A stretch of 64,000 bases of DNA from an uncultured Alphaproteobacteria bacterium (GTDB taxonomy: Bacteria > Pseudomonadota > Alphaproteobacteria > RF32 > CAG-239): NCBI GenBank assembly GCA_934271715.1, contig CAKQRZ010000006.1:30218-94217 (forward strand), in the 5' to 3' direction. The translations under genes were made by a program, and so were the position numbers. Positions 12,460 through 54,388 of the stretch are shown one piece after another. Position 1 is the first letter of the stretch. Each line of letters starts with the position of its first letter. A model generated the notes under the pieces. It did not search any database, was not told where the DNA came from, and saw only the letters and a program-made list of their open reading frames with translations.

Positions 12460-13113
12460 ATGTATAAAAATTTTGAAAAAGGCCGCTCTATGATTGAAAT
12501 GCTCGGCGTGCTGGCAATTATCTGGGTGCTGAGTGTCGGCGGGATTGCCGGATATTCTAAGGCTATGGAGAAATTCAAAATCAATAAACTTATTGAAGAA
12601 TACAGCAATATTATCTTTCACTTAGTAGAACATGAAGAAAATATTTTGAGGTCTAATTCTGATAGTCAAACCGGACTTTCTGGTATTATGGAAGCAATGA
12701 ACATTGTTCCAAACACTTGGTCTAAAATAAATGAAGTTTCATATAAAGACGCGCATGGAAATATTATTTCAGTTTATTCTGTTTTGGCTGATTATGGTAA
12801 AATCATTGGTTTTGACATGTATTTAGGCGGTATTTCCCAAAACGAACAAGGCAATAGCATCAGCGCAAATTTTTCTAAAAAACTATGTTTTGAACTGCTC
12901 AGTACGTTTGCCAATTCTTTGCACTCACAGGTATATATAATATCGGTTGCACGACGCTCTAAATATTGGGAATCAAACGGACGCTGGGGCGATAATTATT
13001 GCGGTGATGAAGAGCATAAATGTCTGGCAGCTGCGACGATTTCTGATTTTCAAGACATGTGCAAATTCTGTGATGATAATGAAGGACAATGTAACATCGG
13101 AATAAGATTTTAG
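12460..13113 (+). CDS. type IV pilin/pseudopilin-like protein, paralog P1 (short 8-aa leader)
   Basis: GGAG RBS 8 nt upstream of the ATG at 12460. Leader MYKNFEKG, then RSMIEMLGVLAIIWVLSVGGIAGY (Gly at -1, Glu at +5, hydrophobic helix). C-terminal C-x6-C-x12-C-x2-C-x6-C module. Confidence 0.8.
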   Translation: MYKNFEKGRSMIEMLGVLAIIWVLSVGGIAGYSKAMEKFKINKLIEEYSNIIFHLVEHEENILRSNSDSQTGLSGIMEAMNIVPNTWSKINEVSYKDAHGNIISVYSVLADYGKIIGFDMYLGGISQNEQGNSISANFSKKLCFELLSTFANSLHSQVYIISVARRSKYWESNGRWGDNYCGDEEHKCLAAATISDFQDMCKFCDDNEGQCNIGIRF

Positions 13114-17631: not shown

Positions 17632-18969
17632 CTAGCCGATGTAGTTTCTGATTTTTAAAATTGAGCGGCTGACATTTTTAACAGCAGATTTCAAGTTTAA
17701 GTCATTATAGACTTCCAGCGCCGAATTAAAATAGTTGCGGGCTTCTTCCATCAGCTTGTCATCATCATTCTGCTTGCCCAGCAAATAAAAAATATTGCCG
17801 ATTTTTTCCTGAATTTCCGCCCAAGCCACCGGCTCATTATTCTGCATATAAATTTTTTGCTGATTTTTATAAGCTTCAATAGCCAGCTGCATCAGCTCAT
17901 TGCTTTTTGTCTGCATGCCCAAAGCCGTCAGATAGTTGCCGAGATAGCCCTCTATCCGGCACCAAGAAGCCGGAAACTGCGCCAAAGAATACACTTTTTC
18001 AGCTTCGCGCAATTTAGACACCGCGTCGCGCAAAGCCTGCAAATCGGCGGTATATTTCCAATATTCATAATGCAGTAAAGCCAGATGATAAGAAATAAGC
18101 CCGTAGTCATAAGGATAATTGCGGTTCAGATTCTTCTGCGCCGTCTGATAGCTGGAAATTGCCAATTTCAAATATTCGGCCGAATTTGCCCTATTTTGCA
18201 AAAATGCCGCTTCATAGAGCTGCCCTAAATTGTTATAAATGCAGCCGTAATAAATAGGCAGCCGCATAAACTGTTTATTTTTCAGCGCCGTATCAAAGAG
18301 GTTTTGGATAATTTCCACATCTTTCAGGCTCAGATTATCGCGGGTGTTGCACAAATAGATTTTACCCAGCATATTCATAATATAGGGCATAAACTCTTTT
18401 TGAATATCCTTAGGCGATTTGTCGGCCGAAAGCAGGGCTATCAGCTCGCTCAAAACCTTAGGCTGGCGGCGGCGCTGCTCATTGGTAACCGGAGTTATAG
18501 CCGCCACGATAATCCCATATATCAACAGCAGCAGCGACTCCGAAAAATTGTTGGTATCCGTCAGATAATTCAACGGAATAAACAGGCTGTCCAAAAGCGA
18601 AAATGACAGACTGTTCGGAATTACATATTGGTTATCCACCTGAAAATTCAGCCGGATTTTGCCGTCTTCTTCATAGCCCCAAATCACTATATCCGCACCG
18701 GTTGAACTCAAAATCTTATTGCCGCGGTCAATAAAATCAAAAAAGTTGCGGCTTTGCAAATTCAAAAAGCTTTTAGCAAACGGTTCATTAAAAAAAGTCA
18801 CGCTGAACAAATTACTTTGTTTTAAAAGTTCGGCAAAGCGTAGGCCGCAGTTGAGGCTGCATTTATCCTCAAACGCCACTACCGTAACCCGAAACAGCCC
18901 CGTTTCTTCTTTCTTTTTCTGCGGAGCCAGCAAATTACATATATTCAGCAAATTCGGCGAAAACGACAT
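17632..18969 (-). CDS. TPR-like repeat protein
   Basis: 445 aa with repeated helical A..Y/L..A patterns in the C-terminal half. Abuts the upstream membrane protein gene. Confidence 0.55.
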   Translation of the reverse strand: MSFSPNLLNICNLLAPQKKKEETGLFRVTVVAFEDKCSLNCGLRFAELLKQSNLFSVTFFNEPFAKSFLNLQSRNFFDFIDRGNKILSSTGADIVIWGYEEDGKIRLNFQVDNQYVIPNSLSFSLLDSLFIPLNYLTDTNNFSESLLLLIYGIIVAAITPVTNEQRRRQPKVLSELIALLSADKSPKDIQKEFMPYIMNMLGKIYLCNTRDNLSLKDVEIIQNLFDTALKNKQFMRLPIYYGCIYNNLGQLYEAAFLQNRANSAEYLKLAISSYQTAQKNLNRNYPYDYGLISYHLALLHYEYWKYTADLQALRDAVSKLREAEKVYSLAQFPASWCRIEGYLGNYLTALGMQTKSNELMQLAIEAYKNQQKIYMQNNEPVAWAEIQEKIGNIFYLLGKQNDDDKLMEEARNYFNSALEVYNDLNLKSAVKNVSRSILKIRNYIG

Positions 18970-20094
18970 TTATTTTTCCTTTTTCCGAGCTGTGGTTTTG
19001 CGTTTTCTGCCAGTTTTGGCGGCTTTAGCCGGCGTGTTCAATGATTTTATATCGTTATGAATATCGGATATATTTTTTTTGACATCGGCAATAAATTCCT
19101 GATTGATTTTTTTCAGGCTGCTGTCAAACGGGTGCAGCATGGTATAGCCAAGCCAGCTCATTATGCCGAAACCGATAATGACAAGGCTGTACTGATTTAT
19201 AGCAAACAGCTGGAACCAGCCGATTAACAGGCTTATACTGCAGATTTTTGCCACGCTGCGCACCAAAAAATTCAGGCTGTATTTATAGGCGGCCTGCGCG
19301 CTGTTGGTATTTTCAAACAAAGCGCCGGATTTTACGGCAACAAATTTGTTCCAAACCGCAAAAAATAACTCACTCCAGAAAAACGTGGTAAAAATCACGC
19401 AGGAGCTAAAGCTGTATTCGCCCGAATCCAACAGCATCAGCGCCGCAATCAAATAGGCCAGCGCACAGCAGGAACCGTTGTCTAACGGAACCCGCACCGT
19501 ATTCAGATTGATGCAGAAATAGCCGCCTAAGGTGCCTATCAGCAAGGCAGAGCATAAGGTTATATATAAAGGAGCGGCTGAAAATAGAAACAGCACCGCC
19601 ATGCCGAGCAAGGTTACAACCGACGGAACTATAACAATGTGCGGCAGAAAGTTCAATACTCCGTAAAAAATACAAAAGACAGAAAAGAAAACTATTAAGC
19701 ATAATCTGGCTGCCCAAACATTGTGCATGCCGTATGAAAAACCGTCGCCGAGCGGCTGCAGAAATACCGTTGCAGCGACGCAGGCCGAAACAATCAGCCC
19801 ATAACGCCAGCCTGAGCAGAACATGGATGCTATAAAAATAACCGCGGCAAATAATAACGGCAAAAAAGCACGGGCGGCAGTTAAAGGCTCAATAAAATCA
19901 TTATGCTCAAAAAAGTAATATACAAAAACCGTGCCGACCGCATAAAACATATAAATATAGCTGAAAGGCAGCATTGTCGGCTTAACCTGCAAGGTTTGCT
20001 GATATTTGTTGGCAATAGGCGTAAACACCAGCAGCATTGCCGCAAAACCCGCCAATACCAACAACATAAAGATAATTATACTTGTATTGAACAT
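18970..20094 (-). CDS. polytopic membrane protein with basic C-terminal tail
   Basis: 374 aa, about 9-10 hydrophobic helices, tail AKAAKTGRKRKTTARKKEK. Confidence 0.55.
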   Translation of the reverse strand: MFNTSIIIFMLLVLAGFAAMLLVFTPIANKYQQTLQVKPTMLPFSYIYMFYAVGTVFVYYFFEHNDFIEPLTAARAFLPLLFAAVIFIASMFCSGWRYGLIVSACVAATVFLQPLGDGFSYGMHNVWAARLCLIVFFSVFCIFYGVLNFLPHIVIVPSVVTLLGMAVLFLFSAAPLYITLCSALLIGTLGGYFCINLNTVRVPLDNGSCCALAYLIAALMLLDSGEYSFSSCVIFTTFFWSELFFAVWNKFVAVKSGALFENTNSAQAAYKYSLNFLVRSVAKICSISLLIGWFQLFAINQYSLVIIGFGIMSWLGYTMLHPFDSSLKKINQEFIADVKKNISDIHNDIKSLNTPAKAAKTGRKRKTTARKKEK

Positions 20095-31583: not shown

Positions 31584-32342
31584 TTATACCAAGTCAAGAT
31601 ACAAAACAAATGAGCATGTCTCCGTAGCACAGGTTTTGCAAAACGCATCCAACTGCACCGGTGTCAGATTATAAAAACACCGGCGCGAGCCTTTGCATTG
31701 TTTTTTACCCCAAATTACATTGCTGACTTCATAACCTGTTGCGCTGTCTGCCCTATTTCTCATCTGTAAGTTGTCAATATTCTCGTCAAACTCAGCTATC
31801 GCTTTCACTAAATTGCGGCATTGACTTTCGGTTCCTTTATTAAAAGCTGAACCGCTGTAATTCAACACAATGCCAAAATAGCATTCCGGAGCAGAGCAGC
31901 GCACCCATGTTCCGTCACTTTTCAAGCATGAGCCTAAACCATAAAAAGAAGAAAAAGTGTTGCCATAAACATCATGCAGCCGGTTTTCATCTAAGCTCAT
32001 GCCGGCAGGAATCCTGTCTAAATCGTTCAGTATGGCAATAACTGACCAATGCCCCTGCGGATTTTGTTTAACCATATCCGCCATATCTTTTTGAATTTCT
32101 ATGGTATTGTAAAGCAGCATACTTATCTGCTGCATCTGCTTATTGTCCTTAAACATCCCCATGGCTTTACTATAACCTGCAATCCCGCCGACAGATAATA
32201 CGCCGATAATAGCAAGAACTCCAAGCATTTCTATCATGGAACGCCCCTCGCTGCTGGCGTCATTGCAAGAAATGTAACGACGAAGCAATCCATTACCCTC
32301 GCCCCTATTCTTTCCTCTTAAAAAATTCATACTCTCCAACAT
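31584..32342 (-). CDS. type IV pilin/pseudopilin-like protein, paralog P2 (34-aa leader)
   Basis: AGGAGA RBS 9 nt upstream of the ATG. Leader MLESMNFLRGKNRGEGNGLLRRYISCNDASSEG, then RSMIEMLGVLAIIGVLSVGGIAGYSKAM. C-terminal C-x5-C-x12-C-x2-C-x4-C. Confidence 0.75.
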   Translation of the reverse strand: MLESMNFLRGKNRGEGNGLLRRYISCNDASSEGRSMIEMLGVLAIIGVLSVGGIAGYSKAMGMFKDNKQMQQISMLLYNTIEIQKDMADMVKQNPQGHWSVIAILNDLDRIPAGMSLDENRLHDVYGNTFSSFYGLGSCLKSDGTWVRCSAPECYFGIVLNYSGSAFNKGTESQCRNLVKAIAEFDENIDNLQMRNRADSATGYEVSNVIWGKKQCKGSRRCFYNLTPVQLDAFCKTCATETCSFVLYLDLV

Positions 32343-33810: not shown

Positions 33811-33870
33811 AGTAATATCAATTAACCTAAAAATGAGGAAAGAAAGATGAAAAATAAGCTATTCAAAGGT

Positions 33871-33884
33871 CTCTCTCTCTCTCT
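33871..33884 (+). repeat. (CT)7 dinucleotide tract in the 5' coding leader of P3
   Basis: Counted directly: ggt ctctctctctctct gca. Confidence 0.95.
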
Positions 33885-34010
33885 GCAAATCCTAAACATC
33901 TGATTAAAGGCGTATTTTTTGCCGCTCAGCGTGTTTTTGCAGAGTTCAGCGCAAAAAATCACACATTCGGAAATAACAAGTTCAGTAGCAACTCTATAAA
34001 GAGTTCTGGA

Positions 34011-34691
34011 TTGCTTCGTCGTTACACTCCTCGCAATGACATTTGCTCGGCTGGTCGCAGTATGATTGAAATGCTCGGCGTTCTGGCGATTATTGGTGTA
34101 CTGAGCGTGGGCGGAATTGCTGGCTACTCCAAAGCGATGGAAAAGTTCAAGCTCAATAAAATCATCGGTGAATATAATCAGCTTATTATGTGGATTTTGG
34201 AAAATCAGCTAAGCCTGAAAAAATTAGAAGACAAGACAAAACTTGCAAATGTTATTATCGCCGCAAATGTGCTGCCTGCCGACTGGTCAGCTGTTACCGA
34301 TACATATTTGTCTGACGGCAAAGGAAACTTAGTACACGCCTATGTAAATCAGGGAAAATCACTCTATAACCTACAACCGCGGATAACCATTGATTTCAAC
34401 TTAGGCGGACTATCGGGAGATTTAACCGATAAAAATGCAGATATTTTTTCTACAAACTTTTCTGATAAACTTTGTTTTGAGCTTTTTAATAATTTGGTAA
34501 AACCTTTGCACTCGCAAACCATTTACGGATATGTATTTAAAAATCACAATCCGATTATATATTGGGGAGACGCCTACTGCGGACAAACTACCGGAAAATG
34601 TTTGAACAACATAACTCTAACAGAAATAAAAGAAATTTGCAGTTCCTGTGACAAAGAAAATGAGCGCTGCAATGTAACAATAGGTTTTTAA
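34011..34691 (+). CDS. type IV pilin/pseudopilin-like protein, paralog P3 (frame is open upstream to 33858; the ATG at 33847 is out of frame across the CT tract)
   Basis: ...CSAG then RSMIEMLGVLAIIGVLSVGGIAGYSKAMEKFK. C-terminal C-x6-C-x12-C-x2-C-x6-C. A possible TTG start at 34011 has a weak AAGAG Shine-Dalgarno sequence. Confidence 0.72.
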   Translation: MLRRYTPRNDICSAGRSMIEMLGVLAIIGVLSVGGIAGYSKAMEKFKLNKIIGEYNQLIMWILENQLSLKKLEDKTKLANVIIAANVLPADWSAVTDTYLSDGKGNLVHAYVNQGKSLYNLQPRITIDFNLGGLSGDLTDKNADIFSTNFSDKLCFELFNNLVKPLHSQTIYGYVFKNHNPIIYWGDAYCGQTTGKCLNNITLTEIKEICSSCDKENERCNVTIGF

Positions 34692-34704: not shown

Positions 34705-34756
34705 TAAAAAAAATTGTAATATAACAGCCTTTGCGGCGCTATATTACAATTTTTTG
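34705..34756. terminator. bidirectional terminator
   Basis: 12-bp stem aattgtaatata / tatattacaatt with flanking A and T runs. Confidence 0.65.
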
Positions 34757-52718: not shown

Positions 52719-52806
52719 CATTAAAAGCCGAAGTTCTTTATGAACTTAGGCTTTTTGCTTGCCGGTAGAAAAGCTGAAAAAAACAGCCTAAAAACTGTCC
52801 ATTTTA

Positions 52807-52827
52807 AACGGTCGTTTTTTTTACACA
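52807..52827. repeat. solo copy of the 21-bp inverted-repeat arm (IRR type)
   Basis: aacggtcgttttttttacaca is identical to 32514-34 and 41081-101. No partner arm or internal promoter is present at this locus. Confidence 0.9.
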
Positions 52828-52860
52828 CTTTCGACCATAATAACACTTTGATTTTTCCGG

Positions 52861-52890
52861 TTGACTTATGGCGTGAGGCTGTTATAGAAT
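52861..52890 (+). promoter_or_regulatory. sigma70-like promoter of the P5 cassette
   Basis: TTGACT, 18-nt spacer, TAGAAT, upstream of the AGAGGAAAG RBS and the ATG at 52927. Confidence 0.55.
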
Positions 52891-52950
52891 TGGAGTGTAA
52901 ACAACATAATTTTAGAGGAAAGAAAGATGAAAAATAAGCTATTCAAAGGT

Positions 52951-52966
52951 CTCTCTCTCTCTCTCT
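52951..52966 (+). repeat. (CT)8 dinucleotide tract in the 5' coding leader of P5
   Basis: Counted directly. Confidence 0.95.
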
Positions 52967-53092
52967 GCAAATCCTAAACATCTGATTAAAGGCATATTTT
53001 CTGCCGCTCAGCGTGTTTTTGCAGAGTTCGGCGTAAAAAATCACACATTCGGAAATAACAAGTTCAGTAGCAACTCTATAAAGGATTCTGGA

Positions 53093-53737
53093 TTGCTTCG
53101 CGTTGCTCGCAATGACGTCTGCAGCGTGGGACGCTCTATGATAGAAATGCTGGGCGTTTTAGCGATTGTTGGTGTTTTATCCGTGGGCGGCATCGCTGGA
53201 TATTCCAAAGCGATGGAAAAGTGGAAAATAGATAAAGCCACTGAGGAATATTCGCATATTATTTTTGGAATGCTGGAGCATATTGACGATGTGCGGAAAT
53301 TAAGTCCGCAAAGCGGATATACAGGACTTGCCGACTTGGCTATTGCCTTAAACCTTATACCAAACAGCTGGAATAAAATTGGTGATAAACATTTTAAGGA
53401 CGCATACGGAAATATGGTTCAGGTGCAAGCTCGCGCCGAAAATTTAGTCTTTGATATATTTATCGGCGGTATTCAATCAAACAATGACAGCACATCATCT
53501 CCGGGGTGGTCGCCGCGTTTATGCGAATCTTTAATTTCTAATTTAGCGCAACCGTTACATTCTGCCGTAAATATTGTGAATACCTGGCAAAGTGGAAAAG
53601 GTGGGATATATTATCGCGGAGACGCATATTGCGGCGGCAATATACCTTGCGTCAGCAGCATAACGCTCAACAATATTCATGAGATGTGCAAACATTGCGA
53701 TGGCTCTCGCGAGTGCTGTATAACTCTGGAATTTTAG
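53093..53737 (+). CDS. type IV pilin/pseudopilin-like protein, paralog P5 (frame is open upstream to the CT tract)
   Basis: ...CSVG then RSMIEMLGVLAIVGVLSVGGIAGYSKAMEKWK. C-terminal C-x5-C-x12-C-x2-C-x5-CC. A possible TTG start at 53093 has an AAGGA Shine-Dalgarno sequence. Confidence 0.72.
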   Translation: MLRVARNDVCSVGRSMIEMLGVLAIVGVLSVGGIAGYSKAMEKWKIDKATEEYSHIIFGMLEHIDDVRKLSPQSGYTGLADLAIALNLIPNSWNKIGDKHFKDAYGNMVQVQARAENLVFDIFIGGIQSNNDSTSSPGWSPRLCESLISNLAQPLHSAVNIVNTWQSGKGGIYYRGDAYCGGNIPCVSSITLNNIHEMCKHCDGSRECCITLEF

Positions 53738-53832
53738 CAGATTACTTTCTTAAAAACATTTGACAAAATTTTCTAAATCAGCTATATTTTATTCAAATGT
53801 TTATAATTATGTTTCACTAAAATTTTATTTTT

Positions 53833-54345
53833 ATGGAAAATTTAAATGATTTGTATAAAGAATTCTTTTCTGCAGTTATCAATAGCGGTAAAGAGCTTTC
53901 AGTTGATGCGCTAGATATAGCGAAGCAAATAATTGCGGCTGACAAGAATGCTGATTACAATATTACCGCACCTAATATTGATGCTTTAGCCAAAGAATTA
54001 ACAGACAAAGAGAATAAAATCTCAACAAGCCGTTTGCAAAATATTCTTTTTGAATATAAGGACTACGTAGAAGACGAAAAATTTATCAGCCTGATGAAAC
54101 CGCTGTGTAAAGGTAGATATTTTTCGTTTTCAAAGTACGAAACATCTGCAAAATATGTCAAATTTTGGATTGCTGTCAGAGGATATCTGAACAAGGGAAA
54201 TTGGATAGATTTGATTCGCTTTGGCAATTGTTCGGAAAAACAATGTAAAAAGCTTTTAGGTTCATATCAAAACAGCTGTAAAAAAATTGCTGAACGTGAC
54301 CTATTGGCTATTTGCAGAGTTCTCAAAAATAGAAGGTCTTACTAA
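53833..54345 (+). CDS. hypothetical protein
   Basis: 170 aa ORF downstream of P5, AT-rich, with no recognised motif. Confidence 0.45.
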   Translation: MENLNDLYKEFFSAVINSGKELSVDALDIAKQIIAADKNADYNITAPNIDALAKELTDKENKISTSRLQNILFEYKDYVEDEKFISLMKPLCKGRYFSFSKYETSAKYVKFWIAVRGYLNKGNWIDLIRFGNCSEKQCKKLLGSYQNSCKKIAERDLLAICRVLKNRRSY

Positions 54346-54346
54346 A

Positions 54347-54388
54347 CAAAACTCCGCTTATCTTTCACGATAAGCGGAGTTTTTTTTT
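54347..54388. terminator. bidirectional terminator
   Basis: Hairpin actccgcttatc / gataagcggagt with A and T runs. Confidence 0.75.

Follow-up and report, generated by a model that had tools for sequence, protein, structure and literature searches.

Phase variation driven by simple sequence repeats (SSRs) is characteristic of pathogens adapted to a host, among them Neisseria, Haemophilus, Helicobacter, and Campylobacter. In the opa genes of Neisseria, CTCTT pentamers lie in the leader-peptide coding region of a family of about 11 to 12 copies, the products of which are outer-membrane beta-barrels. Known pilin variation proceeds by gene conversion (pilE/pilS), by inversion, or through a poly-G tract in pilC; to our knowledge, no pilin varies by means of an SSR in its own leader. 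Here we describe P5, a pilin-like gene with a (CT)8 tract shortly after its start codon, together with the cassette (promoter-like site, Shine-Dalgarno sequence, ATG, CT tract, and leader) that it shares with related genes. P5 lies in a 64,000-nucleotide (nt) stretch of DNA, referred to below as the window, from the uncultured Alphaproteobacteria bacterium CAG-239 (RF32) (GCA_934271715.1, CAKQRZ010000006.1, positions 30,218 to 94,217, forward strand).

In Helicobacter pylori, CT repeats in the signal-peptide coding region set the ON/OFF state of oipA/hopH, and the same applies to sabA and babA (PMC10564699). The likeness of P5 to oipA lies in the CT unit, in its position a few codons past the start and within the region of a cleaved N-terminal peptide, in the LSLS codons, and, as proposed here, in an ON/OFF frame shift by slipped-strand mispairing, with several paralogous surface-protein genes switching independently in a host-associated bacterium. 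The H. pylori proteins are beta-barrel outer-membrane proteins with class I signals, whereas P5 appears to carry a prepilin-type class III signal; in addition, the tract described here is in a leader of at least 67 amino acids that is predicted to be cytoplasmic, a near-identical unit recurs in about 30 genes per genome, and the organism is an uncultured gut alphaproteobacterium. With opa, the cassette genes would share the organization of a surface multigene family in which every member combines a promoter of its own with an SSR in the leader region and switches independently, giving variable subsets. They differ from opa in having a dinucleotide rather than a pentamer, about 30 rather than about 11 to 12 copies, pilin-like products rather than beta-barrels, and a long leader, which opa does not have. 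We searched the literature for this pilin-like family and for pilins of gut Alphaproteobacteria that are switched by an SSR and found no relevant account of either. The mechanism as such has precedents, and what seems to be undescribed is the pilin family, the long leader, and the portable switch cassette.

The P5 locus occupies positions 52778 to 53737 of the window and consists of the following features:

52778 to 52860, + strand: 5' boundary region of the cassette, from an alignment of the three window copies; common to the copy at 41201 and to P5 alleles in other genomic contexts
52861 to 52890, + strand: putative sigma-70-like promoter, TTGACT-18 nt-TAGAAT (consensus scan, 10/12 matches)
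52914 to 52920, + strand: Shine-Dalgarno (SD)-like AGAGGAA, 7 nt 5' of the ATG, inside an invariant purine run (read from the sequence)
52927 to 52929, + strand: start codon, in frame 1, of the switchable prepilin open reading frame (ORF); the sole conserved ATG with a ribosome binding site (RBS)
52951 to 52966, + strand: perfect (CT)8 tract, the proposed site of strand slippage; OFF here, ON with 6 or 9 units
52967 to 53131, + strand: coding region of the leader, read in the pilin frame, with 54 codons followed by the Gly(-1) codon (53129 to 53131); expected to be translated only in ON alleles
52975 to 52977, + strand: TAA ending the 16-amino-acid OFF peptide MKNKLFKGLSLSLCKS (ATG-frame translation)
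53091 to 53116, + strand: GATTGCTTCG...CGCAATGAC motif, encoding GLLRVARND, a conserved part of the leader ahead of the predicted cleavage site (3 matches in the window, 0 expected)
53132 to 53737, + strand: mature pilin-like domain of 201 amino acids from Arg+1, RSMIEMLGVLAIVGVLSVGGIAGY... with Glu5, plus stop (profile alignment, structural model, and selection on codons)

The tract begins 24 nt after the ATG, from the ninth codon. From 52931, frame 2 stays open across the tract and the 54-codon leader as far as the stop at 53735 to 53737. The offset between the ATG frame and the pilin frame is +1, and the two are fused only by (CT)6, (CT)9, (CT)12, and so on; a (CT)6 allele gives a 67-amino-acid leader. 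The original prediction had placed the ATG at 52927 and (CT)8 at 52951 to 52966, with a stop in the ATG frame and frame 2 open from 52967, and had stated that an in-frame fusion needs 6 or 9 repeats; all of this was confirmed in the sequence. Proteins of ON alleles (P0001, P0011, and P0013 to P0022) begin at the 52927-type ATG. The sequence TTGACTTAT in the promoter region is identical in 3/3 window copies, the SD region GAGGAAAGAAAGATG is unchanged between cassette copies, and the purine-rich SD sequence GAGGAAAGAAAG is invariant in the three window copies; judging from the consensus match, the site at 52861 to 52890 probably functions as a promoter.

The tract does not look like a product of chance. 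In 100 dinucleotide-preserving shuffles of the sequence, the 12-nt CT run CTCTCTCTCTCT was expected 0.00 times, and therefore the tracts are not chance occurrences; the three cassette tracts are the only dinucleotide repeats of at least 5 units in the 64-kb window. A tract located in the promoter spacer, acting as a transcriptional switch, was considered and ruled out, since the hexamers lie upstream at 52861 to 52890 and the tract lies 24 nt past the ATG. The SD region AGAGGAAAGAAAG (within 52914 to 52966) is complementary to the (CU)n tract, and the two pair with each other in both leaders for which a minimum-free-energy fold was computed. In these models, RBS accessibility could depend on tract length as well. 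The GATTGCTTCG...CGCAATGAC motif (GLLRxxRND) was at one point taken for an arm of a dispersed palindromic repeat; this was dropped, as all 3 of its occurrences in the window are in pilin leaders, and it is now counted as part of the leader. Motifs of the GLLRVARND type are also present in the 31-amino-acid leaders of paralogs that have no CT tract.

Orthologous loci were then compared for tract length. The repaired protein, used as the query of a homology search, identified P0001 (268 amino acids, 98% identity, 100% coverage), which begins MKNKLFKGLSLSANPK, that is, an in-frame (CT)6 allele. The contig that encodes it, L028, has the gene order of the window (UDG-TPR-133aa-pilin-170aa-MerR-IHF-Alr-TatD) and is 99.15% identical to it over 6811 columns, with 58 substitutions; the single indel is the 4-nt difference in the CT tract, 8 versus 6 units. 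The P5 mature pilin is preceded by (CT)7 in L029, by GGC and then (CT)7 in L030 to L032, and by an interrupted tract, (CT)5-AT-CT, in L033. L034 has (CT)8 and a longer leader, and its product, P0006, is 98% identical to P5. Tract lengths of 6, 7, and 8 units are therefore found at the P5 locus.

The window contains five pilin-like paralogs. Three of them (P5 and two sister copies) have the cassette, and two (P1 and P2) are without a CT tract:

33847 to 34691, + strand: sister cassette 1, ATG 33847, (CT)7 at 33871 to 33884, leader, and pilin; the 6/9 rule holds
41201 to 42342, + strand: sister cassette 2, ATG 41201, (CT)7 at 41225 to 41238, 154-codon leader with in-frame hairpin-module inserts, and pilin; the 6/9 rule holds
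about 12481 to 13113, + strand: paralog P1, with a canonical 7-amino-acid leader (MYKNFEKG, then RSMIEML); no CT tract
31584 to 32342, - strand: paralog P2, with a 33-amino-acid leader containing GLLRRYISCND; no CT tract

The three cassette copies share the promoter-like site, the SD sequence, the ATG, eight identical codons, and the tract, and their leaders are about 89% identical in nucleotides. All three are OFF, and each is one slip from ON. That the three paralogous tracts (at 33847, 41201, and 52927) have lengths of 7, 7, and 8 under the same rule had been anticipated and was verified. In other strains, the opposite strand upstream of the P5 cassette gene carries P2-type genes (leader start MFKSIEFFKGK), which are transcribed away from P5.

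The 33847 locus is polymorphic as well. L048 carries (CT)6; over 3723 columns, it is 99.62% identical to the window and shows no indel except the tract. L047 carries an in-frame (CT)9; both contigs are syntenic with the window, and lengths at this locus are 6, 7, and 9. Only two indels separate L047 from the window, and one of them is a poly-T near 34750. The original prediction had called P5 a mutable contingency locus and had proposed a comparison of orthologous loci, naming uniformly out-of-frame tract lengths as the result that would speak against it. The comparison gave the opposite, with in-frame alleles both for P5 ((CT)6 in L028) and for 33847 ((CT)6 and (CT)9), and the 6/7/8 and 6/7/9 allele series strongly support a contingency locus.

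The cassette was next counted across the family with an exact-pattern scan of one genome per species and a gap-tolerant scan of metagenome contigs, using distinct cassette copies as the unit (n = 49). The one-genome-per-species scan found the cassette in three uncultured Alphaproteobacteria metagenome-assembled genomes (MAGs) from Hadza gut metagenomes, one of which (CAKQDU01) alone has about 28 copies, and the gap-tolerant scan added nine further copies. Among all 49 copies, 6 have (CT)6, 36 have (CT)7, and 7 have (CT)8; in the three GTDB representative MAGs, the corresponding numbers are 2, 24, and 4. A few cassette genes are thus ON; the majority are OFF, typically a single slip away from ON, and both OFF frames stop 2 to 5 codons past the tract in every copy. 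In-frame forms are also found among deposited proteins: 12 of the 16 high-coverage protein matches inspected have the cassette start fused in frame to the pilin domain, 10 with LSLS (6 units) and 2 with LSLSLS (9 units), and at least 12 public protein clusters begin MKNKLFKGLSLS(LS)ANP (MKNKLFKG/MKNKLSKG-LSLS(LS)-ANP), joined to a pilin domain.

We therefore favor, with considerable confidence, the reading that P5 is a translational ON/OFF phase-variation switch that operates on the CT tract. In the mechanism proposed, the conserved promoter, RBS, and ATG would drive the ORF, and slipped-strand mispairing at replication would gain or lose CT units. Alleles of 6 or 9 units would be read from the ATG through the long leader (at least 67 amino acids) into the prepilin-type site G|RSMIE, yielding a pilin-like protein that is exported; in alleles of 7 or 8 units, translation would end after 16 to 18 codons and no pilin would be made. 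The leader would be cytoplasmic and would be cut off there by a prepilin peptidase (class III topology), and a leader of this kind would explain why changes of length, in-frame hairpin inserts, and amino acid drift are tolerated as long as the frame stays open. The ON product would yield peptides spanning LSLSANPKHLIK and a mature N terminus, RSMIEML.

The leaders were examined in the 40 copies in which a leader could be delimited. The frame that follows the tract has 0 stops in 3171 leader codons, compared with 163 and 256 stops in the other two frames, and leaders are 52 to 154 codons long. The longest belongs to the 41201 copy (leader at 41239 to 41703), in which about 300 nt of extra sequence consist of successive hairpin-forming modules, e.g., GTCATTGCTAAAGCAATGTC and CCACAGCCTGCGGGGTGTGG; these inserts keep the frame and introduce no stops, giving 154 codons. 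The RNA fold of the 41201 leader is strong compared with shuffles (z = -5.8), while that of the P5 leader is nonsignificant (z = -0.67); on the latter value, a role of RNA structure in the P5 leader was rejected, strong structure being confined to the insert-bearing 41201 leader. Such modules may represent small, mobile palindromes whose insertion is tolerated only if it preserves the frame. The L030 and L034 alleles carry different hairpin modules at the same leader position. In the AlphaFold2 (AF2) model, the leader is predicted to be disordered (predicted local distance difference test [pLDDT] <50, residues 1 to 68). It seems that the leader must stay open and translatable and that its amino acid sequence matters little, which agrees with the class III topology.

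The mature domain, on the other side of the predicted cleavage site, is under purifying selection. Between P5 orthologues there are 16 to 18 synonymous and 2 to 6 nonsynonymous differences, giving a ratio of nonsynonymous to synonymous substitution rates (dN/dS) of 0.03 to 0.09. The gene is therefore functional even though it is OFF here, and a decaying pseudogene is excluded. These values bear on a second explanation, according to which the out-of-frame copies are silent donors or decaying pseudogenes, similar to pilS, that serve as templates for conversion into one expressed locus. That 43/49 copies are out of frame fits such a role, as do the homogenized 5' cassette, the very diverse 3' domains, and the recombination seen in the joining of the P5 domain to different leaders and upstream contexts. 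However, silent pilS cassettes are donors without promoter, RBS, or 5' coding sequence, whereas every copy here has its own promoter-like site, SD sequence, and ATG; the mature domains are intact, with the low dN/dS given above; and strains that are nearly identical carry in-frame alleles at these loci, the tract being the sole indel. We consider silent donors very unlikely as an explanation of the out-of-frame copies, and recombination may well act in addition to switching.

Conservation declines along the unit. Averaged over all pairs among 32 copies (those of the window and of related contigs), nucleotide identity is 98.5% from the ATG to the tract, 89% in the first 90 nt of the leader, 79% in the first 90 nt of the mature domain, and about 30% in the C-terminal half. 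The unit is therefore made up of a 5' switch module that is conserved and 3' domains that vary greatly. Concerted evolution best explains the high nucleotide identity of the leaders; one and the same mature P5 domain occurs behind different leader variants and in different upstream contexts. Homology between the window and L029 to L032 starts 149 nt 5' of the ATG (about 52778), and beyond this point the upstream gene content differs; from these alignments, the cassettes appear to be rearrangement or recombination breakpoints. In L029 to L033, the P5 unit and its downstream genes sit behind three other upstream neighborhoods (H+-PPase/MarC, response regulator/SOD, and FtsY).

Several observations weigh against P5 being a slippage-driven prepilin switch. 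First, all of the tract-length comparisons were made between consensus assemblies of short-read metagenomes, and these came from different samples. As every comparison sequence is of this kind, the length differences could be sequencing or assembly artefacts at a low-complexity repeat. We regard this as extremely unlikely: the tracts are 12 to 18 nt long, well below read length; lengths of 6, 7, 8, and 9 recur across many independent assemblies and within a single MAG; the flanks are free of indels over 3.7 to 6.8 kb; and collapse of repeats would not favor the two in-frame lengths seen among the database proteins.

Second, the leader shows no sign of selection at the codon level. Its variable sites fall on the three codon positions in the numbers 16/19/17, without a third-position excess, and 620 of 790 pairwise codon differences (78%) are nonsynonymous. 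Since there is no codon-level purifying selection, the nucleotide conservation of the leader must have a different origin, for example gene conversion or a function at the RNA or DNA level. Third, TTG 53093, with AGGA 7 nt upstream, is a candidate internal start that would leave a 13-amino-acid leader. Together, these two points suggest an alternative in which an internal start, for example TTG 53093, gives constitutive synthesis of the pilin with the short leader MLRVARNDVCSVG|, and in which ATG-(CT)n is a regulatory or incidental upstream ORF and the tract is at most modulatory. It is in keeping with this alternative that the cassette-less paralogs have short leaders (MYKNFEKG| in P1 and 31 amino acids with GLLRxxRND in the P2 type) and that gene callers begin most OFF alleles internally (P0003 to P0006). 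The candidate starts are not conserved, however: AGGA is changed to AGAG at 33847, and the sequence ahead of the cleavage site is a different one in the 41201 copy. Moreover, the absence of stops from 3171 codons, in leaders of 52 to 154 codons that include independent inserts, is unexpected for a mere 5' untranslated region, and the promoter, SD sequence, and ATG are the most conserved part of the cassette (98.5% among paralogs). Constitutive expression from an internal start is thus unlikely.

The remaining points concern the protein itself. Class III signal peptides have short, hydrophilic leaders of 6 to 26 amino acids that stay in the cytoplasm and are removed at the cytoplasmic face of the membrane (PMC4471445). 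ON-state leaders of the cassette genes, from 67 (P0001) to about 170 (41201 copy) amino acids, are outside this range; P1, with its 7-amino-acid leader, falls within it. In addition, a tblastn search of 361 kb of the lineage with E. coli HofB, HofC, GspD, GspE, GspF, GspG, and GspO revealed no prepilin peptidase or platform protein. The only machinery candidate in the 361 kb was a 320-amino-acid T2SSE-family ATPase (PF00437, E = 3e-33; L026:3097-4059, on CAKQDU01 contig 10), the gene for which is convergent with a cassette-type pilin gene. Among the scanned ORFs of the window, no pilus machinery was found; they encode housekeeping functions instead (PGM, histidine kinase, GroEL, RND efflux, RsmB, HydF, and others).

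The N terminus of the mature protein nevertheless has the class III features: G|RSMIEMLGVLAIVGVLSVGGIAGY has Gly at -1, Glu at +5, and then about 21 hydrophobic residues, and G67 to A78, L83, and other residues are invariant in 37 homologs. An hhalign comparison of the family profile with E. coli PpdD placed G|RSMIEML in register with G|FTLIELM (E = 1.5e-4), and the best sequence match in the PDB was this same E. coli pilin. Pfam and NCBIfam gave no match to the P5 protein at default thresholds. At permissive thresholds, the top matches of the N-terminal 61 amino acids were exclusively prepilin-type families (TIGR02532, PRK10506, PRK10574, and GspH); TIGR02532 scored 14.7 bits, under its cutoff of 16.3, and Pfam N_methyl (PF07963) scored 9.3 bits for P0001 against a cutoff of 21.2 (best E, 0.015). 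PF07963 is the top family, below threshold, in 35/37 members. More than 7000 relatives are present in databases, without a Pfam or NCBIfam assignment.

The AF2 model (predicted template modeling score [pTM], 0.65) has a 45-residue N-terminal helix (residues 71 to 115) and a beta head with pLDDT >90. Foldseek searches of the PDB gave no pilin match and none with E <0.05 (best E = 0.055, template modeling score about 0.2), leaving the head without a solved relative, and a profile search of the PDB gave only chance gp41 matches. Six cysteines are conserved, which suggests an exported protein. Compared with type IV pilins (PpdD and the GspG/H pseudopilins), the likenesses are G|xxxxE5, the stretch of about 21 hydrophobic residues, the modeled long helix and beta head, and the conserved cysteines; the differences are Arg rather than Phe or Met at +1, the subthreshold profiles, the head without a PDB match, and the leader of 67 to about 170 rather than 6 to 26 amino acids. 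The label "pilin" in the original prediction thus held for the N-terminal motif and the overall architecture, while profile significance and the fold of the head did not bear it out. A pilin-like protein with a divergent class III signal and Arg at +1 is, as read from these alignments, partly demonstrated; the protein would be cleaved after Gly(-1) and may be assembled into a pilus or pseudopilus.

Other features near P5 were recorded. Directly 3' of it is an ORF of 170 amino acids (53833 to 54345, + strand) that has no Pfam or NCBIfam family and has its own near-consensus putative promoter, TTGACA-17-TATATT (53760 to 53788). Other strains have two or three tandem paralogs of this ORF (179, 170, and 189 amino acids), and in L034 an insertion of 642 nt relative to the window brings in one more copy of it. 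Between this ORF and MerR, the intergenic T9 at 54380 to 54388 is the only homopolymer of at least 9 nt in the window. Farther away, four minus-strand ORFs (17632 to 18969, 18970 to 20094, 39140 to 40909, and 45012 to 46013; 445, 374, 589, and 333 amino acids) had no Pfam match at E ≤0.001.

For the family as a whole, about 30 paralogs per genome with the same promoter-switch-leader cassette would give combinatorial variation of the expressed pilin-like subunits across a population. We lean, with some reserve, toward the broader view that the roughly 30 pilin-like genes with a portable cassette (promoter, RBS, ATG, (CT)n, and a weakly constrained cytoplasmic leader of 67 to 170 amino acids) that is homogenized by gene conversion, tolerates in-frame insertions of hairpin modules, and marks rearrangement breakpoints make up a combinatorial phase-variation system for the subunits of type IV filaments, comparable to opa or hop, in which the leader lies outside the class III range. 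Class III signal peptides are apparently able to bear leaders several times longer than those described. With regard to annotation, gene callers misplace the start of most such genes or cut them short, since the assembled consensus has them in the OFF state. An SSR strategy of the kind used by host-adapted pathogens would operate on a very large scale, with about 30 independently switchable genes, in an uncultured alphaproteobacterium that is a commensal of the human gut (Hadza and other cohorts). On this basis, the cells of this poorly known lineage of the gut are predicted to be highly heterogeneous at their surface and to escape pressure from immunity, phages, or IgA.

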